64,000 nucleotides of DNA. It comes from Acinetobacter phage vB_AbaM_ME3. Below the pieces are notes generated by a model. It ran no database searches. It was not told the origin of the DNA and was given only the letters and a program-made list of their open reading frames with translations. Numbering within the stretch: position 1 is the first letter of the stretch; every line of letters starts with the position of its first letter. This document shows, piece after piece, positions 20,983 through 54,600 of this stretch. The DNA lies in the sequence record KU935715.1; one strand, 5' to 3'. The translations under genes and the position numbers were made by a program.

Positions 20983-21002
20983 TACTGTATACGAGGATTA
21001 GT

Positions 21003-22055: not shown

Positions 22056-22339
22056 CGATAGCTGTAGAGTATCCAGAAATTAAAAATGCCTTTATAGGCA
22101 ACAAGATTCAAATAATTAATAAAAGTATATCTAAGATAAGAATTCTAAAGATTTCAACAACTTCTTTACTATTCTCCTTTAAATTAAGTACAGATAATGT
22201 TACATACAATACAAACTTATATCCTCATATAGATATAGAACCAGATGCAATATTAGAAGTGTATGCTAAAGCTGATACAACAACTGTTAGTAGAATTATA
22301 ACTAGTAATCTAATTAACCTTGAGGTAGAGTACGTATGA
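22052..22339 (+). CDS. hypothetical protein (95 aa)
   Basis: ATGA overlap with the upstream gene. Confidence 0.5.
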   Translation: MTIAVEYPEIKNAFIGNKIQIINKSISKIRILKISTTSLLFSFKLSTDNVTYNTNLYPHIDIEPDAILEVYAKADTTTVSRIITSNLINLEVEYV

Positions 22340-23539: not shown

Positions 23540-23542
23540 TAG

Positions 23543-24226: not shown

Positions 24227-24249
24227 TTTAGTTAACTAAAGGAAATAAA

Positions 24250-28850: not shown

Positions 28851-29381
28851 ATGTTTCTCACATCAGGAACATCTTATTACATAATAGCTTTATCAGGCTC
28901 TTACATTCATTGTAAGAGCGGATTAGTTATCCCTTCCCCACAAGTTAAAATCAAACTTCTCACCTATTCAGATCTATACAAAATAAACTTAATGGAACAA
29001 TCAAAAATCTCTTTAGAAGATATATATGAAGAGATTTGTAATAAGTGTGTTTTAGGTATTCAACACTTTGAAGATGAGGAGATAGACTATATTTCATCCC
29101 CTGCGGGAATCGTTGGGCATATAGGTCAGAATATTTTACACCATAGTAAAGATGTATTTTTTGACCTTCCTAAAACATTTGAAGCCTTTTCTAACAGTGT
29201 AACTTTAATAGATCAGATACAGGCTTTCGTATCCAGATATACATGTACTCCTATAAAAGAAGTTAGAGAAATGCCAATAGATCAACTATTGAAAGATTAT
29301 AGTATTATACAAGCATCTTTTCCTCAAGAAATACAACCAATACAAGCAACAGAAGATGAAATAAGTAAAGTAGGTGGATAA
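28851..29381 (+). CDS. hypothetical protein (176 aa)
   Basis: AGGAG RBS. ATGA-type overlap with the next gene. Confidence 0.55.
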   Translation: MFLTSGTSYYIIALSGSYIHCKSGLVIPSPQVKIKLLTYSDLYKINLMEQSKISLEDIYEEICNKCVLGIQHFEDEEIDYISSPAGIVGHIGQNILHHSKDVFFDLPKTFEAFSNSVTLIDQIQAFVSRYTCTPIKEVREMPIDQLLKDYSIIQASFPQEIQPIQATEDEISKVGG

Positions 29382-32300
29382 TGGCTAATTACATAACTCC
29401 CTCTAAAGAGATGCTAGAACAAGAGGTAGAAGATAAGAAACTAGAAACTATAATAGATATCTCTAAAGGGAGTGCTGTAGTTGGAGCTGCTTATTATTTT
29501 AATAAGGAATTTGGTAATGCAGAGTCCTCAGTTTCAAAATTCTATCAAAAATTACTAGGAACTGAGTATTTACAACGTCAACTGAATAAGGGTTCTCCTC
29601 TAGCAGACCCTTCAGGAAAATTTGCTAATCAATCTCTAGTTAAATCAATGCTCTCTCAGTTAATGGCTGTAGAAGAAGCTTCCCCTTTACATATATTACG
29701 TACATTACAGCTTAGTAATATTATTAATCCTTATGTCTCCATGACTCAAGCAGACCAAGAAGTAAGATTTTCTAAAAGACAAGTACTATTTCAAAAACAT
29801 TACTTTGAAGCTATGGCTAAGTTTGCTAATAAAGATTTAGATGATAAAGCTATTAAGTCTTTAATGAAACAGGCAGAACATAATGGATTGATATACAAAG
29901 CTGGAAGATTGTATGTAGGTAATAATGATGGAACTATAGGAGACACGTTTGCTAAAGTTGCTAAACTTTCTTTAGCAAATATTAGACAAGGTTCTGTTAA
30001 TTCTCCTAATCAAATGTTTCTTAATTACTCTAAGGCAATTGGTGGTCAGATAGATCTAGATAATTATCATATTAACCCATTAGTGGTTATGGGGGCTGAT
30101 AGTGAAAGTAAGTTTGCAGCTAAATGGGGACAGTCTTGGTTTAAATACGCATTAGAAACAGGTATGAGATCTCTCGATAACCCATTAGCTGGTGTCGAAG
30201 AAATGATGAGTGGCTTAGGAGCTGATAGAACATCCTTGTTTCAATCTAAAGCTTGGTTAATAGCTAAAAGACATCTGAATGTTAACTTAGGTACTAATGG
30301 AGACTATAACTTAGGAATTAGAGAATCATTAGTTAAATCTGGTAAAAACATAGCTGTGAAATCTGCTAAGATTGCAGTAGGTTATGAAGTATTAGACTCA
30401 GTTCTTAGAACTATATCTCCTTCTGATGGATTATTCAGTGAAGGTCTTTTTACTGGTTTAGTTAACACATATGCTAGTATGAGAATAGACTTTGCTAAAG
30501 CTTGGTCAGACCGTTTTCAAGGTTACAAAAAGTCTCAAGAAGAAGCCGCCCCTGGCTCTACTAATATTAGTTCACTACTAGCATTACCTTTATCAGGGGC
30601 AATGTTTGGAGCTCAGATGGGCTATTTTGGAAGGTTAGGAAAGACACTAACATCTAATGCTGATGAAGCTGCTGATATTTATAATGTAGCTAAAGAATCA
30701 AAGCTCTTATCCGCAGTAGGGATTAAAGGTGAGTTTAAACCTATGAAGAGAAATGCTTACATAGGGGCTCTAGCAGGGGCTACACTAGCTCTTCCTTTCT
30801 TACCTGGAGCTTTGATAGGGTCTAGTTCAGAAGAGCTACAAGAGCTTTACAGTGGCGATAAAGAGGTAGCTCAAAAAGCTAACAGATGGTGGGTAATGGG
30901 TGGTAACTCATGGGAAGGAAGTCATACTAAATTCTTTTCTAAACATTTCGTAGCAAGAGTTAACGCTGATGCAACAGATAAGGTTAGATATGGAGATGAT
31001 GAGACTAAGAAGAAACTTAATCCTCTTCTTCATCCTTTTTCTTACCTACAAGATCCATATAAGTTTGAAAAGATGCACGCTGAAGATATGCCATATCCTA
31101 TATGGGGTATGGATGTAGGATATGGTTCCATATTTGGTAAGTTGTTTGAAAGAACTGTTGGTCAGATTATTAAACCAGATGTAGTTAACCCTGCAATATA
31201 TGATTTATCAGAAGCTGCATCTCATTTCACAACTAGAGCTGGAGCTGCTACCTTTATTAAAAATGCGATTTTAGGAAAGATGGGAGAAAAAGATCAAGAT
31301 CAAAGTTCCTTACTTATCCCTACCGCTGTAAATAGAACAGATGCTAGTTTAATAAATGCAGGATTACTTAGTCATCCTGAAGCTGCTAGATATAATCCTA
31401 ATGTAGAAGGAGCAGGGTTAGTTTATCAAGCATTAACAGACTTAGTAGGTATTAAAGGATGGGCGGCTTCATTTCCATTAGCCTCCATAGGAATAGACCC
31501 TTCAAACGTACCTCTACAACTAGCTAGATCTGGGGAAGCAACTTCAGCAGCTAGAGATTTAGTATCTCAGAACCTAGGCGATATGGCAGGGATGGGTGAA
31601 TTCCAACGTAAGATTTTAGGAACTTCATCTGGGTCTATTATAGATAGATCAAACCCTCTAACTAATAATCTTCCTTCTTGGTTACCTTCAACTGACTCTC
31701 AATACTATATAAACTTTAGAAAAGGTAATGCCTATGATAAGGTGCCTTTAGGTGAAGAAAGAATTGCAGGAGAAGGTTTTGGAGCTTTAAATAAAGAAGT
31801 TGAAGGTGTTGATCCAGAAGACTACAGTTTAGTTTATAAGTATAAAGTACTAGCTGACGTTGCTAAAGGGTCTAGAGAGCATATTAGAACTCGCCAGAAT
31901 ATTCTCCAAGCATACAATGCAGGAAAACTTTCAGATAGAGAAACAGAGATTCTAGAACAAACTTTACAGCAAGAACAAGAAAGAGACCAAAAGAAAACTT
32001 TCTATGAACCATCTTCAGTTGGGAAACGTTTTGGATTCGGCCCTATAGGTTATGTACAAAGTTCTATATGGGATTTTGTATCTAAGCATAGCGAATCTCC
32101 TCTAGAAATGTTAACTCCAATTAGACCTTCTGCTAAGTTTCTACATAATAGAACTGCTATACAAGATTATGTAGAAACTCAACTAGGAGGTACTGATGCT
32201 GCTGTATGGACTAACTATTATTCTCACTTCATTAAACCTGCTTTAAATAAAACCAGATTAACATTTGATGGCGGATTTAGACCTGAAGAAAAGCTTGAGA

Positions 32301-33172
32301 AAGATACAATTAATGAATACTTTGATAAGATGAAACACATCAAGAATAGATCAGATGTTAATCCTTATAATGATTCTAATTCAGTTGTAGCTACGTCCAT
32401 GTCTGGGTTGAATACAGTAGATAAAGTAATGAAGTTTAAAAAATCATTATCAGATGATGAACGTGATTACTTCGAGTCTTTTTCTAAAGAAACATCAGAG
32501 AAAAAGAGGGATATGATTAGATCATTATTACCTTCAGATGTGTTACGAGGATATGAACAGATATGGCGAAATGTTGATATAGCTAAGGATGCTAAAGAGA
32601 GAGGTATAAGTGTACAAAAAGCTATTGCTGATGACATACATAATAATACTAATAAACTTAAATCAGCTATGGATGTATCCCTATCAGATAAAGAAAGACA
32701 AATAGCTAGAGATAAAGTTAAGTCTAACTCAGATAGCTATTGGAATATGGGTTTTAGTGAATCAGAGAGAATTCAATACACTGAAGATGAGTTGTTAAGA
32801 CTTAAGATGGCAGACATGGAATCATTAACATATCTTAATAACTCTACTGGAGTTCCATCTAAGAAATTCATGGGTTGGGATCCTAGATTAAAGACTGATG
32901 ACATCAAGATAAGAACATTATCTGTAGGTGGAGAAGATCTTAAGAGATTTGGATTCTGGCAGAAAGATGAAGAGAGGATGAATCGATTAGAATTCTTAAA
33001 ACAAGATAACGAAGTAGTACAATCGTTAGATGAAATTAAACATGAGCTTAAGAAGAATAGATATATGAAGCAACAGATAAGTGACTTAATGTTTAAACAT
33101 GGTTTTAAAACTAACAATATAGATGTAGTTGACTCTAGTTATGGAGATTTAATAATTGAAGGACAAAGATAA
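29381..33172 (+). CDS. giant virion-associated protein (1263 aa); candidate tape measure or injected protein
   Basis: Uninterrupted 3.8-kb ORF with an AGGTGG RBS, in the tail gene block. No recognisable catalytic motif. Confidence 0.7.
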   Translation: MANYITPSKEMLEQEVEDKKLETIIDISKGSAVVGAAYYFNKEFGNAESSVSKFYQKLLGTEYLQRQLNKGSPLADPSGKFANQSLVKSMLSQLMAVEEASPLHILRTLQLSNIINPYVSMTQADQEVRFSKRQVLFQKHYFEAMAKFANKDLDDKAIKSLMKQAEHNGLIYKAGRLYVGNNDGTIGDTFAKVAKLSLANIRQGSVNSPNQMFLNYSKAIGGQIDLDNYHINPLVVMGADSESKFAAKWGQSWFKYALETGMRSLDNPLAGVEEMMSGLGADRTSLFQSKAWLIAKRHLNVNLGTNGDYNLGIRESLVKSGKNIAVKSAKIAVGYEVLDSVLRTISPSDGLFSEGLFTGLVNTYASMRIDFAKAWSDRFQGYKKSQEEAAPGSTNISSLLALPLSGAMFGAQMGYFGRLGKTLTSNADEAADIYNVAKESKLLSAVGIKGEFKPMKRNAYIGALAGATLALPFLPGALIGSSSEELQELYSGDKEVAQKANRWWVMGGNSWEGSHTKFFSKHFVARVNADATDKVRYGDDETKKKLNPLLHPFSYLQDPYKFEKMHAEDMPYPIWGMDVGYGSIFGKLFERTVGQIIKPDVVNPAIYDLSEAASHFTTRAGAATFIKNAILGKMGEKDQDQSSLLIPTAVNRTDASLINAGLLSHPEAARYNPNVEGAGLVYQALTDLVGIKGWAASFPLASIGIDPSNVPLQLARSGEATSAARDLVSQNLGDMAGMGEFQRKILGTSSGSIIDRSNPLTNNLPSWLPSTDSQYYINFRKGNAYDKVPLGEERIAGEGFGALNKEVEGVDPEDYSLVYKYKVLADVAKGSREHIRTRQNILQAYNAGKLSDRETEILEQTLQQEQERDQKKTFYEPSSVGKRFGFGPIGYVQSSIWDFVSKHSESPLEMLTPIRPSAKFLHNRTAIQDYVETQLGGTDAAVWTNYYSHFIKPALNKTRLTFDGGFRPEEKLEKDTINEYFDKMKHIKNRSDVNPYNDSNSVVATSMSGLNTVDKVMKFKKSLSDDERDYFESFSKETSEKKRDMIRSLLPSDVLRGYEQIWRNVDIAKDAKERGISVQKAIADDIHNNTNKLKSAMDVSLSDKERQIARDKVKSNSDSYWNMGFSESERIQYTEDELLRLKMADMESLTYLNNSTGVPSKKFMGWDPRLKTDDIKIRTLSVGGEDLKRFGFWQKDEERMNRLEFLKQDNEVVQSLDEIKHELKKNRYMKQQISDLMFKHGFKTNNIDVVDSSYGDLIIEGQR

Positions 33173-36100
33173 TGGATAAACGATTAGCAGCTGTTGCCGC
33201 TGGAGCTTTAGGAGCTGCATACACTACAGACATATTTGAAAATCCTATAACTGGTGTTGTAAATGCTGGTATTGGAGCTGCAATGGGTAGTATGCTTATT
33301 CTACCCGAAGTAGATGTTCGTAACTTAGCCAAAGTAGTTACAGGAGTTAAGCAAGATGAGGCTTCAATATTAGATAGAGCTTCTAGTGGAATATCTAAAC
33401 AAGAGGAAAAATTAAGAACAAACTTCTCGACTAGAGTAGAAAGCTTCATAGATAGTTTTATGAAATATTCTGAAGGTGATGGATTAGAGAATGGTTTTAA
33501 AGAAAATCTAGATACTGTTATAAAAAATTCTAAAAGTATTGAGACCATATTAAAGTCTAGAGGGTATAACAATATTCCTAGTCTTCCTGAAGATCCAGCT
33601 AAGTTTAGTGAATTCTTAAAAGGACTAACAAATAAGCATGATATCTCAAGTATAATTCCTCTTTTCTCTGAAGATGCAATCGATTTTGTTAACACTAATG
33701 CTGTAAATGCTCCTAAAGTTTCTCAATACACTACTAGAATTGATGGGTCATTATCTCAAGAAGATAAGATTAAAAAACTGGCATCAGTCTTTGAAACTCA
33801 GTTTGGAAATAAAGTTGAAGATGCTATGGACAAAGCATCAATGTTTGTTAAACGAGCTGTAGGAGATATTAAGATATCTGATGGTAGTATTATTCTTAAT
33901 GATGTTGTTGACTCCAAATCTGTAACTGTACCTATTACATCTTATGATGCAAATGGAATTAGATATCATAATGCTGGAAATGGTAGAGCAATGGCTGTAA
34001 AAGGATTCTCTCCATTTGCATCTTTATATATGAATGAAGGTGTATCTTCTTATGCTTATGATTTTGCAGACGGAAGAAGACTAGTTACATTGGAAGATGT
34101 TGAAAGAGGATTAGATCCTGAAATGATGTTAAAGTTTCTTCCTGAAAAATCTCCTATGGCTGACTATGTAGGTAATATGAAAAAATTAATTTCATATGAC
34201 GCCTCAGAAGCTGCACATGAGATAATCGATGGACCTAACTTTACTGTAACATCTCCTCAACTTAAGAACTTATCTACTATTACTTCTTTAGAGTACCAAT
34301 TGAATATTGATTCACAAGGTAATATCAATCACAATAGACCTCTTGTAACTCCTTCAAGTTATCTACAGAAAGAGGGAGGAGGAAGTGCTGTAGCTGATAT
34401 AGTGATTAATAAACTCTCTATTGATAATAAAAGAGCTCATAAATATGGTATTGGTACATCAGGAAATAAGTCATTGGATATCCAGACCAATCCTAATAAA
34501 GGTACTATAGGTATGTTTGTTCCTAAAACTCGTAATCCTAGTGGATCTGTACTTAGAGATACAGCCCCTGTTAAGAGGGGTCAAGGGATGCAAGCTTTAG
34601 ATATGATATATGGAAATTTTATTAAAGATAATTATGCATCAGCTCAAGTTGTTAATAAACTAGATATTAATAATGCCAAAGCCTTTAATGAATTTGCAGT
34701 TGCTTTAACAGGGCAAAATCAAACTATTCTTGCTGATGGTTTTGGTTTGTTTAATAAAGGACATTCAGAAGCATTCAGTATTAAGACTACAGCTGAATTA
34801 GCTATTCCTCTTGACAATAGAACCTTAATGCTTAATAAGGACCTGAAAGAAGCTTTAGAATCTCCAAATTTAAATGATTTTTTAAGAGAGAAGGGTGGGA
34901 TTAACATTGGAACAGATATTCTTGGGTACGATGCTAATGGAAGACCGTTCCAATTAGGTAAACAATTCTCAGAAGGAATTATAAAATCAGGTAGACGAGA
35001 TAATAATGGAAGACTTTTACTATCTATAGATGCTAGATTTAATCCTCAATCGGAAGAGAGTTTGAAATTCTTTTCTGTAGGGTCTAAATCATTAGCAGAG
35101 GGAATAGAACAAACAAGATTTAATATTCTTGCATCTGTAGGTTCGTTAATGAATGAAGGTTTAGTATCATTTCAAAACAATGTACTAACAGCTAATGATA
35201 CTGCTCCTGAAGCTCTTAAACTTGCACTAGGGAACGGACTAGGATTAGACGATATTAAAAGACTAGATCAAAATAGGCATTTCTCTGTATTTATGAGACA
35301 AGATGTCTCTATGATTACAGAAGCTTCTAAGACTGGTATGAGTGACTTACAACATCTTTTAAATGCATCTCCAGATGATGAACTCTTTCAAGAATTTGCT
35401 AAAGCTCACAATATCACTAAATTATTAATGGATAATCCAGCACAGAAGAGATCTATTGTTACAGCTGCTTTCTTAATGCAAGAAAATAAAGCTAATGAAG
35501 ATATAACTTCTGCTATCGCTACTAGACTTATGAAGCCTTTACAAGATTTAAAAAATCAAGTTTCAGGCTCTAAAGACTACAGATCTATTGTTAACTTAAT
35601 GAATGCTGGTATTATACCTAAGACTAAAAACTTTACTCCTGAATTGATTGATCAAGCTATAAATAATGTAGCATCTGCATGGCGATCCGCTACTAGTATT
35701 AATAAATACTATAAAGGTGATAGATTAGCTCAAATGGAAGATTTAACTAGACTTGTTGCTCTTTCTGGAATTGATTCAGATTTAAGAGGAGGTGTTTCTA
35801 GTACTATTGGTACAGTTAATAAAGGTAGAGCGAATGTAGGTACTGGAAATAAAGCAAGTATGTCATGGGTAGCTAGAACAAGTTTACTAGGTTCTGGATA
35901 TTCAAGAAAGCAATTAGATCTTTTTGGAAAGATAGATGACGGATTACTGTATGAGGTTAACTCCCTACAAAGAGAGACAGCCTTTCAAACTAAATCTGTG
36001 AATTCGTTTATAACAGGAAGAGAAAAAGAACTTAGTTCAATACTAATGAATACAACTCCTGAACAAAGGATTAGTAGACTTAGAAGTGCTTTTGCATACG

Positions 36101-37983
36101 ATAGTAAAAATCCTTATATTAGTTATAATTTTAATTACACTGATCATGATATTAAATCTCTTAATTTCTCTCTCATTTCAACAACAAGAAGTGGTAAGTT
36201 TGATTTTAAAGACAGAGAGTTAATTAAAGAATTAGAGTCTAAACGCTTAGATTTACTTAATTTAGATATTGCTTGGGGAAGAGCTTCAGGTAAAGAAAAA
36301 ACTAGATTAGGAAAAGAACTCAAAGCTGCTCTAGATAGTTATACTACTTACAGAACAAATATGTTGTCTGGTGATAACAGTTTAATGAAAGGAGCTTTAA
36401 AACTTTACAATGAGTCTTCAGGAATCTATGAAGTTAAACCTGTAGGAGGAGCTGCTGAACGTCTTTTTGCTAAATCAGAATTGAATGCAGATGGTTCTTA
36501 TAAAGGAATTTCAGACAAGGTTGTTATGTCAAAAGGAGGAGTAAGGGAGTGGGCTTCAAGATTAGGTATTAAGGCAAAAGATATAGAGTTATTAGATACA
36601 GAAGAATTAGGTAAAGGTGAGCAGTCTCTTAAGAGAGTTATGTATAGAGATGCTGATAATAGATTAGTTCCTCTCTCATTAATGGCTTCTCGTGAACCAG
36701 CACAAGGTACAATGTCTTCTCAATTATTAGATGTAGTTCTTGATTCAACTATAGATCATAATGACACTGCTTTATTCTTCTCTAGAGGAAGTGCTGCTTG
36801 GTCTATTATGATGGGTGGAGACCACGATCAAGACCAAGCAGCTGTATTAGGAAATAAGCACTCTTACTCTGAGTATAGAGACTTGAAAAACACAGCAGAT
36901 ACCATTAGAGAACGTAATGCAACTCATCTTAATGACTCGTTACTGATGTCACCTAAAGGAAGTACTAAATCAGCAGTTACATTAAATAACTTTGGAAGTT
37001 TAGCAGAGTACAGTGAATATAATAACAAATCAGCTATGCAAGGAACTATTCGTAAAGATATTTCTCCTATGGCTACAGAGTTTAAGATCAATGTTAGTGA
37101 AGCTGTTAAGAAACGTTTCTATGGGGATGCAGACTTAATTACTGAAGCTGAAAATGCTTTATATAGATCTGTAGAAGGTCTATTAAAAACAAGTCACATC
37201 AGCACTGAAGACTTTACAGGTACTATGGCAATACAACAACTAGATTTTGCAAGAAGACAATATGTAGAAGGGGTATATGACAGTGATAAGTACGAGAAAG
37301 TTTTAAGAGAACATATACCATCTATCCTAGGATATGACGAGAATAAACCTAATGCAGAAAGACTTTCTAATATAGTTGATAACTTAGTTAGTGCTGAAAT
37401 AGATCAAGCTAAACGAGTTCATAGGGAAGCCTTCACTCCTACTCAAATCAATAAGGGTGAAAGGTCTGCTGCTCAGACTACAGCTAATATAGGGTCAATA
37501 TTAAAAGCTCAAGATATTGTAGATGTAGAAGAAGGAATAGATATGGCTCGTTCTCCACAGCAGTTGTATCATGGTGCTACTGATGCTATTATGGATACGT
37601 TTAAACGTAACAAGAGTTTAATTGCTGTTGGATTATCAGCAATGGCTGGAGTTTCATTATTAGCTAGAGAACAACCATCATTTAGTGACTCCAGAGATAA
37701 TGTAAGGATGCATAATACTCAAATGTTACAACAAAGAATAGACCCTGAAACAGTAGAAACAGGAATAGAAACAAATGTTAATAGAACTAACTACATTCAG
37801 CCTCAATACAATTCTAATAAAGCTGTTAGAATGTCTGGAGACTTTGTAGAACAAAGTTATAACACTTATGAACAATTCCCTTCTGACTTAATGGATTCAG
37901 CTGACACTCAAGTACAATCATTACAAAATGCTGTATTTGGAAATGATATGAGAAACGCAAGATTAAATATTACAGACTTATAA
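33172..37983 (+). CDS. giant virion-associated protein (1603 aa) with an N-terminal Gly-zipper/hydrophobic segment
   Basis: 4.8-kb ORF. ATGA overlap with the upstream gene. The N-terminus AAVAAGALGAAYTT...GIGAAMGSMLIL is hydrophobic and Gly-rich. Confidence 0.7.
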   Translation: MDKRLAAVAAGALGAAYTTDIFENPITGVVNAGIGAAMGSMLILPEVDVRNLAKVVTGVKQDEASILDRASSGISKQEEKLRTNFSTRVESFIDSFMKYSEGDGLENGFKENLDTVIKNSKSIETILKSRGYNNIPSLPEDPAKFSEFLKGLTNKHDISSIIPLFSEDAIDFVNTNAVNAPKVSQYTTRIDGSLSQEDKIKKLASVFETQFGNKVEDAMDKASMFVKRAVGDIKISDGSIILNDVVDSKSVTVPITSYDANGIRYHNAGNGRAMAVKGFSPFASLYMNEGVSSYAYDFADGRRLVTLEDVERGLDPEMMLKFLPEKSPMADYVGNMKKLISYDASEAAHEIIDGPNFTVTSPQLKNLSTITSLEYQLNIDSQGNINHNRPLVTPSSYLQKEGGGSAVADIVINKLSIDNKRAHKYGIGTSGNKSLDIQTNPNKGTIGMFVPKTRNPSGSVLRDTAPVKRGQGMQALDMIYGNFIKDNYASAQVVNKLDINNAKAFNEFAVALTGQNQTILADGFGLFNKGHSEAFSIKTTAELAIPLDNRTLMLNKDLKEALESPNLNDFLREKGGINIGTDILGYDANGRPFQLGKQFSEGIIKSGRRDNNGRLLLSIDARFNPQSEESLKFFSVGSKSLAEGIEQTRFNILASVGSLMNEGLVSFQNNVLTANDTAPEALKLALGNGLGLDDIKRLDQNRHFSVFMRQDVSMITEASKTGMSDLQHLLNASPDDELFQEFAKAHNITKLLMDNPAQKRSIVTAAFLMQENKANEDITSAIATRLMKPLQDLKNQVSGSKDYRSIVNLMNAGIIPKTKNFTPELIDQAINNVASAWRSATSINKYYKGDRLAQMEDLTRLVALSGIDSDLRGGVSSTIGTVNKGRANVGTGNKASMSWVARTSLLGSGYSRKQLDLFGKIDDGLLYEVNSLQRETAFQTKSVNSFITGREKELSSILMNTTPEQRISRLRSAFAYDSKNPYISYNFNYTDHDIKSLNFSLISTTRSGKFDFKDRELIKELESKRLDLLNLDIAWGRASGKEKTRLGKELKAALDSYTTYRTNMLSGDNSLMKGALKLYNESSGIYEVKPVGGAAERLFAKSELNADGSYKGISDKVVMSKGGVREWASRLGIKAKDIELLDTEELGKGEQSLKRVMYRDADNRLVPLSLMASREPAQGTMSSQLLDVVLDSTIDHNDTALFFSRGSAAWSIMMGGDHDQDQAAVLGNKHSYSEYRDLKNTADTIRERNATHLNDSLLMSPKGSTKSAVTLNNFGSLAEYSEYNNKSAMQGTIRKDISPMATEFKINVSEAVKKRFYGDADLITEAENALYRSVEGLLKTSHISTEDFTGTMAIQQLDFARRQYVEGVYDSDKYEKVLREHIPSILGYDENKPNAERLSNIVDNLVSAEIDQAKRVHREAFTPTQINKGERSAAQTTANIGSILKAQDIVDVEEGIDMARSPQQLYHGATDAIMDTFKRNKSLIAVGLSAMAGVSLLAREQPSFSDSRDNVRMHNTQMLQQRIDPETVETGIETNVNRTNYIQPQYNSNKAVRMSGDFVEQSYNTYEQFPSDLMDSADTQVQSLQNAVFGNDMRNARLNITDL

Positions 37984-37998: not shown

Positions 37999-40900
37999 AT
38001 GGATACACCAGTACAGTTAGATACTTTATATTTTACTGCTGCTGAAGAAAAAGAGATGTTTGTTATTAACGATATTGAGGTGGGTGTAAGCCCATCCGAT
38101 ATCATGATGTTTGATAACAACTATGTACATGAGCAGACATTTGTTAGATCAAACTCTGTCTTTTGTTACAGATCAAAATACTCTGAAACTAAAGTAACAC
38201 TAAACTTTCCCTTTCAAATAACCCCTCAAAATTTAGTAGCCTCTGGTGAAGACTTAGAAAATAATACGTATAACTGTATTAGATTAATAACTGAGTTAAA
38301 CAGCTATCCTTTCTGTTTTATTAAAAGTCCTCGATTAAAAACTTACGTATCTCCTGCTATGACATCTACAACAGACTACCTAATGTTTGCTGTAGAGGAA
38401 CTTGCTGTTGTTCAGTCAGCGGCAGCTTCTAACTTATTATTGCTTGAAGTTACTTTAGTGTATTTTAACCATGCGCCATTAGCAGCAGATTTTCAATTTG
38501 TTTCTAATAAAGTCGTAACTAAGTCAGGTACATTTAGTACAACAGAAGGTACTGTTAAGACAGAGAGAGACTACATATCTTTTGAAACTCCTAAAGTTGT
38601 TTCTAATTTAGTATCTTCTGATATTTGGGCTCAGTATATTAATCCTAAAGTAGATAAAGTTACTGAGAAATTAGAGAATAATGGTTTATATGAAAAGATG
38701 ATGAACTCTAAAACCACACATGCTGGTTTAGATGTTAATGTCTTCATTCCAATGATTTCTACAGGTATTGAACATGCTGCTAAGTATATGGCAGATGATG
38801 ATGGGAAGTTATTAGCTCCAGACGCTAAAGTAGTTGTAACTACTGATATGGCTCCAATGGAAGATCTAGATCTTCCTAGAAGTATTCGAGAAACCTTAGA
38901 TCAAAACTTTGACGAGTCTAGATTTGAAACTGATTCAATCAAAGGCATGGTAGGTAGAAAGAAAGTAAAAGATAGTAAAGACACTGATAGTACAGATATC
39001 TCTTCTACTAATGAAGTTTCTAATAAAGAAGAAGCTGTTAATAATGTAGGTAAGGATGGAAGCACTCCAAGAGGATACAAACAAGTTTATGTTCAATACA
39101 GTAAAGCTTCTTTTGCTCAACTTGGTTTAGCAGTACAAAAGATAGAAGTACGAAGAAAGAACATATTAGCTATACAAAAAATTGGTGCTTATAAACATCC
39201 TATCGTTCAATTTATGGGTAAGAGAGCTGCACAGACTACCATACAATTCTTAAATAACTCTGATGGAGTTTATAGCGAGTATGATGAAGATAGTGGTATA
39301 GCTTCTTTTCTTACTAATGCTTTTCAGATTCTAGATGAAAATAGAAGACTATATCCTGAAGCAGAGGCTTATAATACATTAAAGATTCATTCATTAGCTT
39401 CTTTTCTCTTAAACTCAGAATCATCAATTCCTAATATTAATAACTTAGTAGCATCAGCAGATAGAAATGGTATTGAAACAATGATCTATCACTTTGCTGA
39501 AACTAATGTAGAAGGATTATTTGATAGTAATAGATTAGAGGCTTCTGGAGCTAAATCTATTTCTAAAGCAAGATCAGAAGTATATGGAATAATTCTCACA
39601 TGGTTAAAAGAATTTAATAGATTACTTTCTAAAAGTAATAAAGAAGGCATTTATCATTTTGCTAATATGAATCAAGACCAAGAAGTTGTCGCTACCTCTT
39701 TAGATATATATGAAGATATTGTAAGAGTTACATTAGCAGGAATGAGAGATTTAGGATTAGATAAGCTCAAAGGAGATGCTGCTGTAATCAAAACAGTAAC
39801 AGATCAATTATCTGATGGAGAGATTTCTCTAGGGAGTGCTAATAAGTTTAGGAAATATTCTTTTGTTTCGTCTAAATCTAGAGTGTTAAGTTCTGGCTTA
39901 AACTTATATGTAGATGCTTCTGAGTCACCTGTAGACTACTTTGATCCTTCTTATTCAGTTAGAGAGATGAGCATTAGTAATTATCATAACTGGTTCTCTG
40001 GTTATGCTATTCAAATCCTTCAAGCTAAGTTAGATCAAATGGATGGGAAACCTATTAATTTAACAAATATTCAAATCAGTGATACACCATCTTCACAATT
40101 TGAAACCTTAGCTACAACTATTATCAATAAATTAGGAAGAACACCTGAAACTATTCCTTTTGGAAATTCTTTCTCAGATAGTCAAAAATTCTTTATTAAG
40201 AATATGATTGACACTTACATAGGTTCTATGTATGGACAGAATCTAAGCGATTTAAAGTTAGAAGACATAGAAGAAGACTATGATGTAACTAAAGATGTTG
40301 TTATTCAAAGTACAGACCCTTTCTTTTTCTTATATACTGAACCTCTTATTGCTGATGAAATGAAAGCATTCTTTAATGATAGTTATAATGAAGAACAATT
40401 AAATAATAAAGCTTTAGAAATAAACGAAGATGCCGAGACAGTAAAACAGATGTCTTCTATAGAAGTTATGCTTGGTGCTAACTACAGAAAGCTTGAAGAG
40501 GTTGATTTTAATGAGAGTGATTGGGCAAGTAATCCAGCTGAAACAGGCGTTGTAACTGTATGGGGAGGAAGTGTAAATCTTAAGCCTTCGAAGAATGTAT
40601 CTGAAGCTATTGAGTATGCTTTATCTGTTTATGGAATGTCTGGAGATGAAGAACTAAGACAGTATATGTATAAAACTGCTTATATTGAGTCTAGACTCGG
40701 TACTAATATGGGATCAGGTCAAACTTATAGAGGTTTGTATCAATTCAGCAGAGGTGCTTTAGATAGTGTTCTAAGAGCAAATAATAAAGCGTACGCTTCA
40801 AAAGGGTATAAAAATTTAAGACCAGCAGATGCTGCAAAAATTGCAGATAAGATATGGAGTGATTCAAGTTTTATTAGAGACTTTAAATCAAGTGCTGTCG

Positions 40901-43900
40901 CATTTTTAGATAGTATGTTTTTAGTTCATGGTGGAAAAAAGACTAATCCTAGAACTGGTAAATTTGACATGCCTTATACGTATGCTGGACATCAACAAGG
41001 TGGTGGAGGTCAAATTAATGTAGGGATTTATCTAAAAACTGGAGTTAGTCCTGCTGTAGGAAAGTCAGCTGAAAATTTAAGACAGAATTCATCATCTACA
41101 TGGGCTAACTGGTACGCAGTTCATTCTAAAAAATATAATGAGTTGGCTCCATATGCAGGAGCTCCAGGAGTAGATCAAGCTAAGAAAGATGCTAAAAAAC
41201 AAGATGCACTAACTAAGCAAACTGTTAGTCAGCCTTCACCTTCCTTTACATCTGCAAGTGCTAGAAATGGTACTTTAAAAACAGGTCAAACAGTAGTCGG
41301 ATATGTTGTAAGAGAAGTAGATGGTGATACATTAGATGTTCAGTATACTGTTGATGGTAAGTCTATTATTCAACGTATTCGTGTTGCTGGGTTAGATACT
41401 CCAGAGACAGATAAGAATAACTCTAAATATAATCCTAAGACTGAGAAGTATGGTCAACAAGCTAAAGCAGAACTTGCAAAACTTAGAGGAAAACAAGTAA
41501 GTATTTCTGTACTAGGGGTTGAGAATGATAATTCTGAATATTCTGTAACACCTAGTACAAAAGTTCGTCTAGTCGCTAGTGTAACTACTGTCGATAAGAC
41601 TAATGTAGGATTAGATATGATTAAGAAAGGATTAGCTAATGTTAATACTATCTTCTCTACTAACCAACAATATACTGCTGCTCTTGAAGCAGCTCAACGT
41701 AGTAAGAAAGGTATGTGGGCTGAATTACCTGCAAATAAAACAGGAGCTCCAACTCAACAACCAATCAGAAAACCAGTAACTCCAGAGTTTACAGGAGAGA
41801 CAGGGAATAATTTTCAACCATTTGCTAATGGTCAGAAGTTTCCTATTAGTTCTCCATTTACTTATGGTAAGCCTAGACAAGATATTAAACGTTCTTCACC
41901 TCACAATGGATTAGATTTAGCAGCTACTAAAGGTACGACTGTAATTGCAGCAGCTTCTGGTACAGCAACATTTAGAGTAGCGAGTGGTTATGGATATTTA
42001 GTTGAGATTGATCATCATAATGGTTTTAAAACTAGATATGCTCATTTATCTAAATCCTTTATTGGTAAAAAACCACAAAAAGTAAATGCTCACCAACCTA
42101 TTGGATTATCTGGTGGTGTTAAGGGAGATATAGGTGCAGGAAGTTCTACAAATGCTCATCTACACTATGAAGTTCATTATAAAGGACGACCAATACATCC
42201 TTTCACTACTAAACAAACATTAGATAAATATGCTGAAGGTTCTTTAGTAGAAGGAGAATTCTCAACATATCCTCAAACAGTAGAAAATAGTGGAATATAT
42301 ACCCCTCCATCTTACAATCCTCGAACAGGTATTACTCCTGAAAATACCGTATACAATGAACAGTACCTAGCAGAAGCTATTATTGATAATGCTAAGAAGT
42401 ACATTAATACAGGTATGAAAGTAGCTCTTCCAGCTATTAAAGTGTATATTGTAATAGGTAATGAGAATGACGGGTTAGGATTAAGTTCTTCGCTGACTGG
42501 TGTTCAATACTACGAACTAAATGGTGTTCAAGCTTTTAAGATGGTTTGCAATAATGATAATAATCCTATTGATGTTGCTATCATGCAAGTTATTAATCCA
42601 TCATTTATGCATACAGATGCTTGGACTAATCAAGCTCCTCCAGGTGTAGATTTAACTAAAGTAGGTACAGATTTAGAAACACAGCTATTGAAGAGTAGAA
42701 TGTTATTAAAAGTTGGTACTAAGCTTCAAGTCAGACTAGGTTATGGTAATGACCCTAATGAATTAGATATTGTATTTAATGGAGGTATTGTTGAAGTTGG
42801 TAACAATGAAAATAATCAAATCATGACTTTAGTTTTAGAAAGTTATGGTAGGGAGTTATTACAAGAGATTGTTAATCCAACTGCACCTGAAGAATCTCCA
42901 CAAGTTTCTACAACCAGTATTATTGGTAAAGCATTACAGTCTAGATCAATAGATCACTTTGGTGCTACTAACAATTTAATTAAATGGTTCTTTAAAGAAG
43001 GCGGAGAAGATCCTGAACAAAGATCTTTAGTGCCAGCAATAGATATTACAGGAAGAGCAGGATTCTTTAACTTGTTTTCAGCTTCTACGTATAGTTCTAG
43101 ACTTTACATGAATATCTTTGCACCAGAGATTGAAAATGTTGATAACACCTATAGTAGTTTATTAAGTTCTTTAATTGATGGTCTAGGTTGGTCTAATAAA
43201 CAAATGTTCCCTACATTCTTTATCTATCAAGCAACTGCTTGGGATATATGTAAACAAATGGAATACAGACACCCTGGCACAATATTTAAACCTATGATAT
43301 TTGAAGATAGAGTAACACCTTTCTATGGTATCAAAGAGCAGATGTATTTTGCTAGAGATTTATCTACTTATACACAGATGCAAGTAAAGGCTAAACTAGA
43401 AGATGAGGTTAGAGACAAACAAGTGCGAGATTACTACTCTAGACGTAGAGAACGTATGAAGCCTGTTAGTAATATTCATATGATTTCCTCTTCTACTAAT
43501 TTAATGTCTAATGGTATTAAATTAAATTCACAATGGAAAACTTCTGTAAACGTTTCTTGGTTTGAAGACAGTGATGACTTTAATGAATATTGGGAATGGC
43601 AAACTCAGAAGATGGATGTTGATGACAACTTACTTCCTTGGGAGATCAGAGAAAAAGAATTAAGAATGAGTGGTATTCATGGTAAATACTCTTCTTTCAT
43701 GTATGGCACAGAGGCTTTGAAAAAAGAAGCTGAAACTATGTACGGAGGAAGTATATTGATAACAGGTAATCCATCTGTTAAAGCAGGAGACTATATTTTT
43801 ATAGATGATACTGAAAACAGAATGTCTGGATTATGTTTAGTTAGAGACTGTATTCACCACTTTGATCCTCAGTTTGGCTTTGTCACTGAGATTACTCCAG

Positions 43901-44988
43901 GATTGTATGTAGAGCCTGCTGCTTTCATGTATAGTGCATTATGGATTAAACTTATGTGTACATTTAAGGTAGGTAGTAGTAAAATAAGACTTAATACATC
44001 ATCTGGCTATTCGTCTCAATATAATCTAATTAAGGACTATTTAGATTTGATGCAACAGTTAGTAGCAGCTGGAGATAATCCTTCCCTGTCTAACTACGAT
44101 ATAGAAGACTCTAGATTACTTATGTTAACGTACTCAACAGCTATTACTCTTTCAGCTTATATGGGTTGGAGTTTGTCTAGATTTTTAGGGCAAGGAGCTA
44201 CACCTATATTTAATAAGAAAGGTCTAGTTAGATTTAGTGCTGCCACGATGAGAGGATTGTTTCATACAGGAACTAATAGAGTCTTCAATTCAGCCTTAGC
44301 TAAAGTAAAGAAAATAGATAGAGTTGCTAAAACACTATCTTATGCTAATGGAAAGTATACAACTACCAAATCTACTGTAATTGCTTCAAAAGCCTTTCAA
44401 AGATTTGCAACATCTAAACCAGTAACCGCTTTAAATGGAATTAGAAACAGATGGTACTATAGATGGACTGCTGGCCTCACTAAAGGAACTGCTAGTCTAC
44501 TATTTAAAGGTGTTACTAGAGCTTCTATGGCAACCATACATGGTTTTGCTGCTAGTAATCCAGTGACACTGATACTTGATGTTGCTTTAACCTTAATTGC
44601 TTCTTGGGCTTTTGCTAAAATAGAAGAAAATAAATTGACAAGACAACCTTTACTATTCTTCCCTTTAATAGCTCATGGAAAACCATACGTTGCTGGTATG
44701 ATGGGTGCAGTTAGAAATAGTTGGCTTGATAGTAAAAAACTTGAAATTGGAAAAACATGGAATCAAGTTTCTAAAGCTGCTGCTGCAATAGATGCTAATA
44801 ACGGTGTGAAAGGTGAAAATACAAATCCTGTTGTTAAGTTAATAGCTAAGCAGTCACACGCTACAGCTGAAGTAAAGAATGTTAGTATGGTTAAGAAGCC
44901 AGTAACTCAAACAGTAACTATTGACCAAGTACAGAAACAATTTGATCCAGATGAAGGAACAGTTAAAAGTCCATTCAGACCTAAATAA
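37999..44988 (+). CDS. giant multi-domain virion protein (2329 aa): lytic transglycosylase (SLT) + staphylococcal-nuclease-like (SNase) + M23 peptidase domains; tape-measure/tail-hub-like
   Basis: SLT motif YIESRLGTNMGSGQTYRGLYQFS (~40680). SNase motifs VVREVDGDTLDV...RIRVAGLDTPET...KKGMWAE (~41280..41730). M23 motifs HNGLDLAA...GYLVEIDHHNGFKTRYAHL...NAHLHYEV (~41880..42200). Confidence 0.85.
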   Translation: MDTPVQLDTLYFTAAEEKEMFVINDIEVGVSPSDIMMFDNNYVHEQTFVRSNSVFCYRSKYSETKVTLNFPFQITPQNLVASGEDLENNTYNCIRLITELNSYPFCFIKSPRLKTYVSPAMTSTTDYLMFAVEELAVVQSAAASNLLLLEVTLVYFNHAPLAADFQFVSNKVVTKSGTFSTTEGTVKTERDYISFETPKVVSNLVSSDIWAQYINPKVDKVTEKLENNGLYEKMMNSKTTHAGLDVNVFIPMISTGIEHAAKYMADDDGKLLAPDAKVVVTTDMAPMEDLDLPRSIRETLDQNFDESRFETDSIKGMVGRKKVKDSKDTDSTDISSTNEVSNKEEAVNNVGKDGSTPRGYKQVYVQYSKASFAQLGLAVQKIEVRRKNILAIQKIGAYKHPIVQFMGKRAAQTTIQFLNNSDGVYSEYDEDSGIASFLTNAFQILDENRRLYPEAEAYNTLKIHSLASFLLNSESSIPNINNLVASADRNGIETMIYHFAETNVEGLFDSNRLEASGAKSISKARSEVYGIILTWLKEFNRLLSKSNKEGIYHFANMNQDQEVVATSLDIYEDIVRVTLAGMRDLGLDKLKGDAAVIKTVTDQLSDGEISLGSANKFRKYSFVSSKSRVLSSGLNLYVDASESPVDYFDPSYSVREMSISNYHNWFSGYAIQILQAKLDQMDGKPINLTNIQISDTPSSQFETLATTIINKLGRTPETIPFGNSFSDSQKFFIKNMIDTYIGSMYGQNLSDLKLEDIEEDYDVTKDVVIQSTDPFFFLYTEPLIADEMKAFFNDSYNEEQLNNKALEINEDAETVKQMSSIEVMLGANYRKLEEVDFNESDWASNPAETGVVTVWGGSVNLKPSKNVSEAIEYALSVYGMSGDEELRQYMYKTAYIESRLGTNMGSGQTYRGLYQFSRGALDSVLRANNKAYASKGYKNLRPADAAKIADKIWSDSSFIRDFKSSAVAFLDSMFLVHGGKKTNPRTGKFDMPYTYAGHQQGGGGQINVGIYLKTGVSPAVGKSAENLRQNSSSTWANWYAVHSKKYNELAPYAGAPGVDQAKKDAKKQDALTKQTVSQPSPSFTSASARNGTLKTGQTVVGYVVREVDGDTLDVQYTVDGKSIIQRIRVAGLDTPETDKNNSKYNPKTEKYGQQAKAELAKLRGKQVSISVLGVENDNSEYSVTPSTKVRLVASVTTVDKTNVGLDMIKKGLANVNTIFSTNQQYTAALEAAQRSKKGMWAELPANKTGAPTQQPIRKPVTPEFTGETGNNFQPFANGQKFPISSPFTYGKPRQDIKRSSPHNGLDLAATKGTTVIAAASGTATFRVASGYGYLVEIDHHNGFKTRYAHLSKSFIGKKPQKVNAHQPIGLSGGVKGDIGAGSSTNAHLHYEVHYKGRPIHPFTTKQTLDKYAEGSLVEGEFSTYPQTVENSGIYTPPSYNPRTGITPENTVYNEQYLAEAIIDNAKKYINTGMKVALPAIKVYIVIGNENDGLGLSSSLTGVQYYELNGVQAFKMVCNNDNNPIDVAIMQVINPSFMHTDAWTNQAPPGVDLTKVGTDLETQLLKSRMLLKVGTKLQVRLGYGNDPNELDIVFNGGIVEVGNNENNQIMTLVLESYGRELLQEIVNPTAPEESPQVSTTSIIGKALQSRSIDHFGATNNLIKWFFKEGGEDPEQRSLVPAIDITGRAGFFNLFSASTYSSRLYMNIFAPEIENVDNTYSSLLSSLIDGLGWSNKQMFPTFFIYQATAWDICKQMEYRHPGTIFKPMIFEDRVTPFYGIKEQMYFARDLSTYTQMQVKAKLEDEVRDKQVRDYYSRRRERMKPVSNIHMISSSTNLMSNGIKLNSQWKTSVNVSWFEDSDDFNEYWEWQTQKMDVDDNLLPWEIREKELRMSGIHGKYSSFMYGTEALKKEAETMYGGSILITGNPSVKAGDYIFIDDTENRMSGLCLVRDCIHHFDPQFGFVTEITPGLYVEPAAFMYSALWIKLMCTFKVGSSKIRLNTSSGYSSQYNLIKDYLDLMQQLVAAGDNPSLSNYDIEDSRLLMLTYSTAITLSAYMGWSLSRFLGQGATPIFNKKGLVRFSAATMRGLFHTGTNRVFNSALAKVKKIDRVAKTLSYANGKYTTTKSTVIASKAFQRFATSKPVTALNGIRNRWYYRWTAGLTKGTASLLFKGVTRASMATIHGFAASNPVTLILDVALTLIASWAFAKIEENKLTRQPLLFFPLIAHGKPYVAGMMGAVRNSWLDSKKLEIGKTWNQVSKAAAAIDANNGVKGENTNPVVKLIAKQSHATAEVKNVSMVKKPVTQTVTIDQVQKQFDPDEGTVKSPFRPK

Positions 44989-51686: not shown

Positions 51687-54600
51687 ATGACCGATCAATA
51701 TTTTAAACATACCCCTCAAGCTTTGAGTGATCAGAATCAAGTTGAGAACTTGGCTATCGAAGTTGAGGAAGCTTTTCTAAAAGTAGAAAAGGACTTATGG
51801 TCTAACACAGTTAATGCTGCATCATTAGGAAGTTCCATTGGTGACTTAGATACTTATTATTTAAAAGAATATCTTCCAAATAATGGAATTATATCTAATT
51901 ATACTCAAAAACTTTATTTTCCTCTTCACTCTAAAGAAGCCTCTTTAGATCTTATTCCTGATACTGCCACTTCTTCACTTAATACGGTGTCCATTAGTAA
52001 CATGTTAATGCCATCGCAAGTGTATACATATAAACATAATGGTTTACTAGAGACTGAATATGACTTTACTTTTGTTAATAGAAAAGTTGTTTTAGGTGCA
52101 GCTCCTTCAGATGCTAGAACACTCACAATCAGTTATAATGGGTATGAGCCTGTTGATTCTAGAGATGTTGGTCTTGATCTTAGATATAATGTACTACAAA
52201 CAGTTGTAAATGGTTCTGTAGTTAAAGAGTTTTCAAACGTAAAAACTGGAAATATCTATAGAATAGATGGCTATGATTTCAAAAATATGTGTTCTAAAGA
52301 CATTATAGATATTATCAACAATGCTCCATATAATCTAGATAAATTTGTATCTATTACAGATGTCAATAGTGACATATCCTATTCTATAAGTAACATTACT
52401 ATTACAAACTCATATATCTCTTTTGAGTCTGATGATGTTATTCCAGAGAATGTGAAGATATACGTAGCCAATAGTAATCTAGGAAAATTAGTTGAAGGTA
52501 TTTATAGACTATTCTACTCACACAATCATGGCTCTGATGGGGGTAAACTTGTATCACATTCAGACTTAGTTGGTCTGTTCAATAATAATAGTGATATCAA
52601 ATACTCTGTCACTAACAAAGAAAACTACGATCACCCTCAATATATAAACCGAGAAGGCTATATTGAAGATCCTTCTGTTTACAATAATGCTTTGTTAGGT
52701 GATTTATTAGTAGCTTCTTCAGATCCTTCTAATTTTTACAATAACCTTAGTAAAGACAGTTTTAAATTAGTCTTTGGTGAATATGCTTCTGGACACAGAA
52801 TGGGATATTCAAAGAATACAGATTCGTTAGTTATTGATTCCCTTTCTAGAGATGGTGTAAAGCTTGTTTCACCTAAGAATAAAAATATTTTCTCCTTAAA
52901 CGAACATAACTTTACTGATTTAAGTGATGGTATTTATTCAGGAGTTCGTTTATCTATTGTTCCAACTGATGTAGGTTCAACAGGAGAAGTAGCTGTATTT
53001 AGTATTAAAAAGGCTGAGATTGATGATATTGGAGCAGTAACCCATACAGATACAGCTGAACTCCATGTATACTCAAGCACATTCTCTATTACTAAAGTTA
53101 AAGACTCCTTAAATATTTTAGATTCGGCAGTTATTAATTTTGGTACTAATCCTAAAGTTAGGATTAAAAGTGAAGCTACTGGAATTAAAGTAGAAGATTT
53201 AACACAAAATAAGAATCAACAATTTTATGTTAATCTCCCTTTAATTACTTCTCAGATCACAGCTGATCATATTGATGCTAAAGAAATTCATATAACTGAT
53301 ACTCAAACATTAGTATTAGGTAATAAAAACCACACAGAGGATTTAGATAAGCAAACACTCTCTTTTAATACTACAACTAATCAAACGGTATTAAATATTA
53401 ATAAGCCTTTACTATTCAAGCGTAATGGGTACGAGTCAGGTATTGCTTTTGGTCCATCTTCTAGAATATTTGCTTCCACAAGTCAAGGATTAAATACTGC
53501 TATTGAATCTGAAAAATTAGATACATATATCCAGAATAATGGTGATGTGTATTTCATTGATAGTGGTTTTACTTATCAAACTGGTTCTACAAATTTACAA
53601 GCTGTAGGTAGAAGTAAAATTCATACTAATGAAGTAACTGCTAACAATTTCTCTGTTAACTATAATGAATCTACTATAAGAGCATTTAAACTTAATGGAG
53701 ATACACATAAGATCTTTGCTCAAAGAGATCCTCAAGGAAACACATCTGTACTCCTTCAAAGCTTAGGCGGTGTTAATGTAGTTAGTGGCTATTCAATCTC
53801 TGGATCTGACGTAACACTAAGTTATGGTGCTGTAAGAGCTTCTGAATTTAGAGTTGAAGGTAATGCTGCTGGGGCGGGTTTCTATGGAAATGTAATTATT
53901 CCAGCTGGAGATACATTAACTGTAAATGGTAATGCTATCATTAATACAGCTCTAGAGTTAAATACTAACTTAACAGTAAGAGGTGTTTCTAACTTAAATA
54001 TTCTAGAAACTAACAGTGTTGATGCTAAGACTCTTTCAGCTGAGACATCCGTAACAACACCTTTGATTACAGCTCCTCTAGGTTTTGAATCTAAGTTATA
54101 CATTGGTTCAGATACTATATTTAATAACAGTGCTACATTTAAACAAGTTTGTAACTTTACATCCAACTGTGTGTTTGATACAACTATTAGTGCTAATACT
54201 GTCAATGCTGTTAACTTAAATGTAACTTCAGCAGTAACTTTTCCACAAGTAACAGCTTCAGGAGTAACAGTTACTAATAATCTTGAATTTAAGAGAATGC
54301 TTCAAACAGATAATACAATTACTTCTGAATTCGCAGGACCTCTTCAATTAAAAGCTGGGTTAATAGTAGATAGAAATTATACGATTCGTTTAGGTAGTGC
54401 AGATATCTTAACCACCAGAAATACAGCTGGTTTGCTATTAACAGAAAATGCAGTTAAATTAGGTAATAACTCTACTGTCAAAGCAACTAAGATGTTTGCT
54501 AATAAAGGTATTCCTACTGGTGGTAATTCAGATATTATTGGTGGTTATGCTTTTGAGACTAACTTAGGAAATACTGATGGTGACACAGGTTTATTCTGTA

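Follow-up and report, generated by a model that had tools for sequence, protein, structure and literature searches.

Why would a bacteriophage carry a nuclease at the tip of its tail, fused between two enzymes that cut the bacterial cell wall? The question is raised by a single gene of Acinetobacter phage vB_AbaM_ME3, located in a 64,000-nucleotide stretch of sequence record KU935715.1 (the window, whose first letter is position 1). This gene runs from 37999 to 44988 on the + strand and encodes a protein of 2329 amino acids. In our judgement its product is quite probably the hub at the centre of the baseplate in the contractile tail of ME3, a jumbo myovirus: a T4 gp27-type hub, set in a lineage-specific scaffold that carries a cassette of three domains, a lytic transglycosylase (SLT), a staphylococcal nuclease (SNase) and an M23 peptidase. 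Since muralytic enzymes at the tail tip are well understood, and antibacterial use is already made of them, the SLT and M23 part of the protein is ordinary. Why the hubs of an ancient jumbo-phage lineage should also bear a staphylococcal-type nuclease has gone unexplained since 2007.

The ME3 genome was reported by Buttimer et al. (2016; PMC5000817), who list only ME3_8 and ME3_113 as cell-wall-degrading enzymes and do not mention the gene discussed here. Nor was any discussion of its product found in the literature citing ME3. An exact-sequence look-up shows that the protein is AND75198.1 / YP_009595869.1, deposited as “peptidase [Acinetobacter phage vB_AbaM_ME3],” while the same sequence appears in UniRef as A0A172Q015, from a contig of 234,900 bp, under the name “Baseplate hub protein.” The ME3 hub is therefore deposited and labelled, but undescribed. 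As a type of protein it is ordinary: hubs with muralytic domains, one of them with an SNase, have been published since 2007. What is added here is fold-level support for the SLT and hub domains, a scaffold-plus-cargo anatomy for the whole family, and the recognition of a catalytically conserved SNase as common cargo.

The hub protein and its domains

A preliminary description of this DNA, made from its letters, had read the locus as a single 7-kb open reading frame (ORF) of 2329 amino acids, and the ORF list and its translation bear this out. The frame opens with an ATG, 7 nt downstream of an AAGGA Shine-Dalgarno-like motif, and is tightly packed among its neighbours, the next gene starting 8 nt past its stop. 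In DNA of ~33% G+C, an open frame of 2329 codons excludes a chance origin. The protein also has ~30 full-length homologs (33–93% identity) and matches phrog_8809 over its full length.

The identity of the protein is carried by its C-terminal third, where residues 1446–1975 (42334..43923, + strand) form a putative central hub domain of the T4 gp27 / P2 gpD / Mu gp44 / VgrG-base type. When an AlphaFold2 (AF2) model of residues 1420–2329 was submitted to Foldseek, the top 22 matches without exception, and nearly all of the top 35, came from the hubs or spike bases of contractile systems. More than 30 hub chains were matched at E 2.6e-8 to 1e-3 over ~520–560 aligned columns, among them Pvc8, the PVC hub (E 2.6e-8), those of AlgoCIS, diffocin and AFP, the pyocin R2 hub, VgrG, the Neisseria and MuSo2 gp44-like proteins, T4 gp27 (1.2e-4) and Mu gp44 (4e-4). 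Profile comparison with hhalign points to the same family: the ME3 family profile (1448–1969) aligns with residues 823–1409 of gp147 from the Bacillus jumbo phage 0305phi8-36 with a probability of 98.9% (E 1.7e-17), and gp147 had been placed in the T4 gp27 / P2 gpD hub family by Hardies, Thomas and Serwer (2007; PMC2147016), who described transglycosylase, NlpC/P60 and M23 domains as decorations of the hub. In Pfam, 6 of 11 family members give a weak YQBQ-like match at the conserved block GN..KAGDY.FIDD...LVRE..H.FD. We take YqbQ/XkdQ to be the hub-position protein of PBSX-type tails.

Gene order agrees. The ME3 module reads sheath, tube-like paralogs, a 1263-aa protein, a 1603-aa protein, hub, small ORFs and a protein with a gp10 C-terminal domain; in 0305phi8-36 it reads sheath gp139, tube gp140/141, chaperones, gp145, the putative tape measure gp146, gp147, a gpV-like and a gpJ-like protein. 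The order sheath, tube, tape measure, hub and baseplate recurs in jumbo contigs of IMG/VR. In ME3, the gene lies between the tape-measure position and the spike and wedge genes of a contractile tail. Because the fold matches are to hubs only, gp147 is homologous and the tail module is syntenic, these comparisons support a baseplate hub and not a tape measure. The locus had first been placed at a “tape-measure/baseplate-hub position,” and it is the hub half of that wording which stands, the preceding 1603-aa ORF holding the position of the tape measure. From homology and synteny, we infer that the ME3 hub is located in the virion.

Upstream of the hub domain lie the three enzymes. The first, at residues 866–1035 (40594..41103, +), is a lytic transglycosylase of the SLT/GH23-like type, with the catalytic pair E897-S898 followed by G912-L-Y-Q915; E897-S898, G912 and Q915 are each kept in 29 of 30 homologs. 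At the sequence level it is the weakest of the three. A single-sequence search of the region against solved structures returned noise only, and a family profile followed by fold comparison was needed. The best solved-structure match of the family profile is phiKZ gp144, whose IES...GWFQF segment aligns with the catalytic motif, while the AF2 model of residues ~860–1050 is confident, with a predicted local distance difference test score (pLDDT) of 76–91, and has the lysozyme-like SLT fold. The Pfam SLT family matches 10 of 16 homologs weakly (best E 1.6e-5) and 14 of 28 distant scaffold relatives (best E 8.9e-22).

The second enzyme is the SNase/thermonuclease domain (residues 1101–1243; 41299..41727, +). 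Pfam PF00565 matches residues 1126–1241 with E 4.7e-14 (53.2 bits against a cutoff of 21), and the family profile finds the Staphylococcus aureus nuclease structures with E 1e-12. Aligned to nuclease A, the domain has the full calcium-binding and catalytic set: D1110 (D21), R1128 (R35), D1133 (D40), T1134 (T41), E1136 (E43) and R1190 (R87). These residues are kept in 26–30 of 30 close homologs.

The third is an M23 zinc metallopeptidase (residues 1291–1405; 41869..42213, +). Pfam PF01551 (Peptidase_M23) covers residues 1301–1401 with E 4.5e-22 (78.5 bits, cutoff 28.7), and the 30-member family profile matches solved M23 structures down to E 1e-34 (ShyA). The motif residues H1302xxxD1306, H1339, H1349 and H1387xH1389 are invariant in 30 of 30 homologs, which supports a predicted peptidoglycan endopeptidase with intact catalytic residues.

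All three enzymes had been named in the preliminary description, with nucleotide ranges that prove right within a few codons. It had proposed a domain search and an inspection of catalytic residues as its own test, and it has come through both. The SLT, SNase and M23 folds are all recovered: the transglycosylase by its profile match to phiKZ gp144, its confident AF2 fold and its conserved E897-S898, the nuclease and the peptidase by their Pfam matches, and the SNase set and the M23 HxxxD/HxH motifs are intact.

The flanks, on the other hand, had been called unassigned. The C-terminal one in fact contains the hub, and nowhere is the protein better conserved than in its N-terminal domain, which defines the scaffold of the family. 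This domain (residues 16–170; 38044..38508, +) is followed by a second conserved scaffold domain, beta-rich in the model (residues 371–520; 39109..39558, +), and then by a variable helical region (residues 521–740; 39559..40218, +) modelled with a pLDDT of 70–90, to which no fold match is attributable. For residues 1–520, AF2 confidence falls below 50. The top Foldseek matches of this low-confidence model are Mu gp43-type chains (PDB 9KI1 chain 0; E 0.07–0.4, probability 0.1–0.2), with tube-like folds also weakly hinted at, and Pfam DNA_circ_N (PF07157) is found in 1 of 11 members, weakly (E 0.16). A fused Mu gp43 “DNA circulation” or tube-initiator protein would be attractive by gene order. 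However, hhalign of the region against Mu gp43 gave no significant match, and with insufficient statistical support the idea is kept as a weak lead only.

Beyond the hub, residues 1976–2329 are predicted to be helical, as had been stated from the sequence. The hydrophobic character attributed to this C-terminus at the same time is limited to one strongly hydrophobic segment in the hydropathy scan (residues 2182–2209). That helix is part of a post-hub motif (residues 2171–2260; 44509..44778, +) and is followed by the block LTRQPLLFFPL..HGKPY.AGM.GA.RN. The motif occurs in nearly all scaffold relatives, as well as in gp147 of 0305phi8-36 (residues 1518–1560, E 4e-5). It has no known counterpart in gp27/gp44-type hubs, and its function could be to act on a membrane or to dock the spike. 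The ME3 hub itself showed no beta-helix spike segment.

Scaffold and cargo across the family

How far does this architecture extend beyond ME3? An exhaustive search with residues 1–520 gave 106 representative clusters. The N-terminal domain was not found as a clear stand-alone protein; among the representatives, nearly every protein of 1350–2600 aa has it at its very N-terminus. Hidden Markov models (HMMs) built from the family alignment were then run on 140 collected proteins. Nearly all of the ~110 large relatives share the N-terminal domain, the second domain, the hub and the C-terminal motif, but they differ in the cargo carried between second domain and hub. The full SLT, SNase and M23 set was detected in 38 proteins (7 of them near-identical to ME3), SNase with M23 in 17, M23 only in 5–8, SNase without M23 in 3–4, and no cargo in 32. 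Hub-only and SLT-only forms turned up in a separate search.

Conservation along the protein follows the same division. Mean pairwise identity is highest in the N-terminal domain (64% over residues 1–170) and the hub (58%), followed by M23 (54%), residues 371–520 (51%) and the post-hub motif (51%); it is 38% in SNase, 37% in SLT, 25% in the helical region 521–740, and 19–28% in the inter-domain linkers. The ME3-type hub is thus best described as a conserved scaffold of structural domains that holds an exchangeable set of enzymes, the latter lying between the N-terminal part of the scaffold and the hub and joined to them by poorly conserved linkers. Exchange may reach further still. The Pfam domain T6SS_VgrG3-like_C, a muralytic effector domain of the spike protein VgrG3 of the type VI secretion system (T6SS), was found in 2 of 28 distant scaffold proteins, both of them from metagenomes (E 9e-54), an observation that indicates probable exchange of cargo between phage hubs and T6SS spikes.

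The embedded nuclease had been thought unusual. It is less so than supposed: an SNase on a hub of the same lineage, that of the BtI1 prophage, was reported in 2007, its utility then being called obscure (Hardies et al., 2007; PMC2147016), and the domain now proves to be common cargo across the family. No later work on the point was found in the literature on virion- or hub-associated SNase domains. In deposited phages, close relatives of the domain are rare, tblastn returning 3 records, among which is a fragmentary one from an ME3-like phage.

The catalytic residues were counted across 54 SNase-bearing relatives, the ME3 cluster being counted once. D21, R35 and E43 are each kept in 49 of the 54 and R87 in 48. 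The D40 position holds D in 40, E in 3 and N in 7, and the T41 position T, A or S. Variation at this last position is tolerable, since the T41 ligand binds calcium through its backbone. Set against the linkers, such conservation reads as that of an enzyme domain under purifying selection, occasionally lost, and not as that of a relic. Far from being the oddity of one prophage, the SNase is a recurrent and catalytically conserved cargo in dozens of lineages. These are lineages of uncultivated jumbo phages, together with one cultivable phage of Acinetobacter baumannii, so that the question can be addressed directly in ME3.

Roles for the nuclease and competing readings

How might such a protein work? 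Three hub copies would sit on the tail axis at its tip, as do those of T4 gp27-gp5, and sheath contraction would drive them through the outer membrane. There, the tube would gain passage through the peptidoglycan once the transglycosylase had cleaved the glycan strands and the M23 domain the peptide cross-links. The SNase is probably an active nuclease. Enzymes of this type need approximately millimolar calcium, far above the free calcium of the cytoplasm, and in the ME3 hub the domain is held between two enzymes that have their substrate in the periplasm. For both of these reasons its site of action is most likely the calcium-rich extracytoplasmic space, that is the cell surface or the periplasm, where it would most likely cut DNA met at the entry site. 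A bolder reading, which we hold to be less likely than not, is that the SNase is an active, virion-delivered, calcium-dependent nuclease with an infection role of its own. Such a role might be to remove extracellular DNA at the surface or in biofilms, or to destroy periplasmic DNA, whether incoming transforming DNA or that of a competitor, at penetration. The roles offered in the preliminary description, namely the degradation of biofilm or host DNA, were guesses.

What would an active nuclease mean? With such a role of its own, it would be the first documented DNase to serve as standard tail-tip cargo beside wall-cutting enzymes, in a widespread jumbo-phage hub family. Activity in itself would extend what phage entry machines are known to do to the degradation of DNA, and would make the three-enzyme cassette (~550 residues) a candidate anti-biofilm reagent against a priority pathogen.

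Several points weigh against this picture of an enzyme-bearing hub. The AF2 model of residues 1420–2329 is of low confidence (mean pLDDT 45), so that the hub fold is called from the consistency of the matches and from profile homology and not from a confident structure. In the 0305phi8-36 record, gp145 and gp146 are flagged as detected by mass spectrometry, and gp147 is not. The ME3 transglycosylase has no match to Pfam SLT (PF01464), even at E 10. Residues 1–865, which make up 37% of the protein, and residues 1976–2329 have no fold match, profile searches of the N-terminal and C-terminal regions against PDB sequences having found nothing; for the N-terminal 865 residues the 11-sequence alignments were too shallow. 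Three N-terminal extensions of ~1400 residues each would have to be housed in the tail. Finally, the SNase is truncated or degenerate in ~6 of 54 relatives and carries D40N in 7, which argues that the domain is dispensable.

The last of these points bears on whether the nuclease is an enzyme at all. SNase is a barrel of the OB type. It may therefore have been kept as a structural or nucleic-acid-binding OB-fold, acting as a hub adaptor or as a clamp on the phage DNA at its leading end, with only SLT and M23 enzymatically relevant. Hub and spike complexes do use OB-fold domains, as in phiKZ gp164 and T4 gp5 (PMC13250141), the latter docking into gp27, and the phage would endanger itself by keeping a working DNase next to its DNA exit channel; the partial losses, degenerate sites and D40N substitutions would find a ready explanation as well. 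Yet the catalytic and calcium-binding residues, needless for structure, are kept in ~48 of 54 relatives, in lineages down to ~27% identity. Furthermore, the ME3 domain precedes the hub, between two enzymes on variable linkers, whereas the gp5-type OB domain follows it. We consider a purely structural SNase unlikely.

Just as doubtful is a nuclease that travels further, being injected with the genome into the cytoplasm to degrade host chromosomal or plasmid DNA, or defence-related nucleic acids, during early take-over or anti-defence. Here the intact catalytic residues would be put to use, and contractile systems are able to deliver hub- or spike-linked effectors, as evolved VgrG proteins do; two scaffold relatives even carry the VgrG3-like domain at their C-terminus. 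Free cytoplasmic calcium, however, would fall far short of the need of the enzyme, the domain is covalently flanked by two peptidoglycan enzymes that work in the periplasm, and neither a processing site nor a translocation signal was identified.

Might the protein instead be the tail tape measure, or a fusion of tape measure and hub? Tape measures with embedded lytic domains are known in other phages, T5 pb2 and those of mycobacteriophages being the models for such a reading, and the great length of the ME3 protein would suit one, as would its 350 helical C-terminal residues with their hydrophobic segment. But a separate 1603-aa ORF (33172..37983, +) occupies the tape-measure position in the conserved order, most of the 2329-aa protein is predicted to fold into globular domains rather than a long helix, and residues 1446–1975 match hub proteins and not tape measures. 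This reading is largely refuted and we hold it to be very improbable. The 1603-aa ORF is itself most likely the tape measure, an assignment made from its position in synteny with gp146 of 0305phi8-36 and with two IMG/VR loci (L001 and L004); BLASTP found no similarity to gp146, and there was no Pfam or PHROG match.

Least credible of all is a soluble, endolysin-type lysis protein outside the virion, a reading prompted by the database labels “endolysin” (RefSeq 0305phi8-36 gp147 and phrog_20474) and “peptidase” (the ME3 record) and rejected in view of the hub fold and the hub position inside the tail operon, of the separate ME3 lysis pair ME3_7 and ME3_8 (PMC5000817), ME3_8 being lytic by experiment (PMC5795418), and of the fact that lysis from within needs no 2329-aa scaffold.

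The surrounding tail module and known systems

The hub gene belongs to a tail module whose other parts can be named with varying confidence. The tail sheath (24250..26247, +) matches phrog_16991 with E 4.5e-196 and is 26% identical to gp139 of 0305phi8-36, the sheath of which is its only relative among deposited phages. Three tandem small paralogs follow (26261..26947, 27022..27756 and 27766..28341), all matching phrog_9206, which bears the label “major head protein.” In RefSeq, gp140 and gp141 of 0305phi8-36 have that same product name, although the notes in these entries describe them as tail tube and tail tube paralog. The ME3 genes are most likely tube paralogs, and the label of phrog_9206 seems to be a propagated mis-annotation.

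Next comes the 1263-aa homolog of gp145 (29381..33172, +), recognized by collinear BLASTP segments (E 5e-14, 6e-12 and 1e-5), with no Pfam or PHROG match. In 0305phi8-36, gp145 is a virion protein identified by mass spectrometry. The 1263-aa ORF is conserved in L001, a distant IMG/VR locus, where it also precedes the gene at the tape-measure position, and in locus L004 two ORFs of 889 and 526 amino acids replace it. A 104-aa ORF is assigned as the spike by position; BLASTP against the gpV-like gp148 found nothing. Further along, a 1180-aa baseplate or tail protein with the C-terminal domain of T4 gp10 (51687..55229, +; Pfam PF21939, E 3.5e-23, and phrog_5717 over its full length) provides a T4-like wedge or fibre-attachment element within an otherwise 0305phi8-36-like tail.

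Three observations concern the window more widely. A 576-aa ORF (60414..62144) partially matches phrog_11157, a profile of 3825 residues, and may be related to the ME3_104-type proteins, giants of 5419 amino acids that are mentioned in the genome report (PMC5000817). The G+C content of the window is 28–38% (~32% on average), below the published figure for the genome; the remainder of the genome must then be much richer in G+C, unless that figure is in error. Lastly, the unannotated 40-kb record MG366115.1 (Acinetobacter phage PBAB25) contains short scattered pieces 96–97% identical to window positions 5708..24580 and 40256..41669, covering structural genes and part of the hub gene. This suggests that the assembly is chimeric or fragmentary, or that the preparation contained an ME3-like phage.

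Where does the ME3 hub stand among known systems? Its nearest described counterpart is gp147 of 0305phi8-36, also a gp27/gpD-type hub decorated with muralytic domains (transglycosylase and M23). The two share the hub core (~26% identity), the post-hub motif, M23 and the position of the gene. They differ in arrangement, as the NlpC/P60 and M23 domains of gp147 lie C-terminal to the hub (Pfam) and it has no SNase, whereas SLT, SNase and M23 are grouped N-terminal to the hub in ME3. The ME3-type N-terminal domain is undetectable in gp147, and the host of gp147 is Gram-positive while that of ME3 is Gram-negative. Among the BtI1 and BwK1 prophage homologs of gp147, the BtI1 hub is the one that bears a staphylococcal-nuclease domain (PMC2147016).

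T4 gp27-gp5 (PDB 1K28) has the same hub fold, and likewise a tail-tip muralytic enzyme delivered to the periplasm by sheath contraction. In T4, however, the lysozyme is on a separate, spike-forming gp5 and there is no nuclease, whereas ME3 fuses three enzymes to the hub polypeptide. Mu gp44, P2 gpD and the 43-kDa tail proteins of Neisseria and MuSo2 (PDB 1WRU, 3D37, 3CDD) are related by the hub fold (E 6e-6 to 4e-4; TM score normalised to the target 0.41–0.48), and the gene order around the ME3 hub resembles gp42-gp43-gp44-gp45 of Mu. The Mu gp44-type hubs are of ~320–380 residues and have no enzymes, the ME3 protein being six times longer.

The evolved VgrG proteins of T6SS (e.g., VgrG3) offer a parallel of another kind: these too are hub/spike scaffolds, of the same fold class, to which effector enzymes are covalently attached, and contraction delivers them. 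Their effectors come C-terminally, after the spike, and serve bacterial competition, whereas the ME3 cargo precedes the hub and would serve phage entry. SLT-fold or M23 modules for local peptidoglycan digestion at entry are also found in T7 gp16, in the cyanophage A4 internal protein 9K2V_E and in the tail-associated lysin 9M7N_A of phage NF5; these are podovirus or siphovirus parts, with no gp27-type hub after the enzymes and no SNase. As for the nuclease, S. aureus nuclease A has the same fold and the very residues counted above, D21, R35, D40, T41, E43 and R87, all of which have their equivalent in ME3. Nuclease A is secreted as a stand-alone enzyme, while the ME3 domain, ~25–30% identical to it, is an internal module of a 2329-aa protein.

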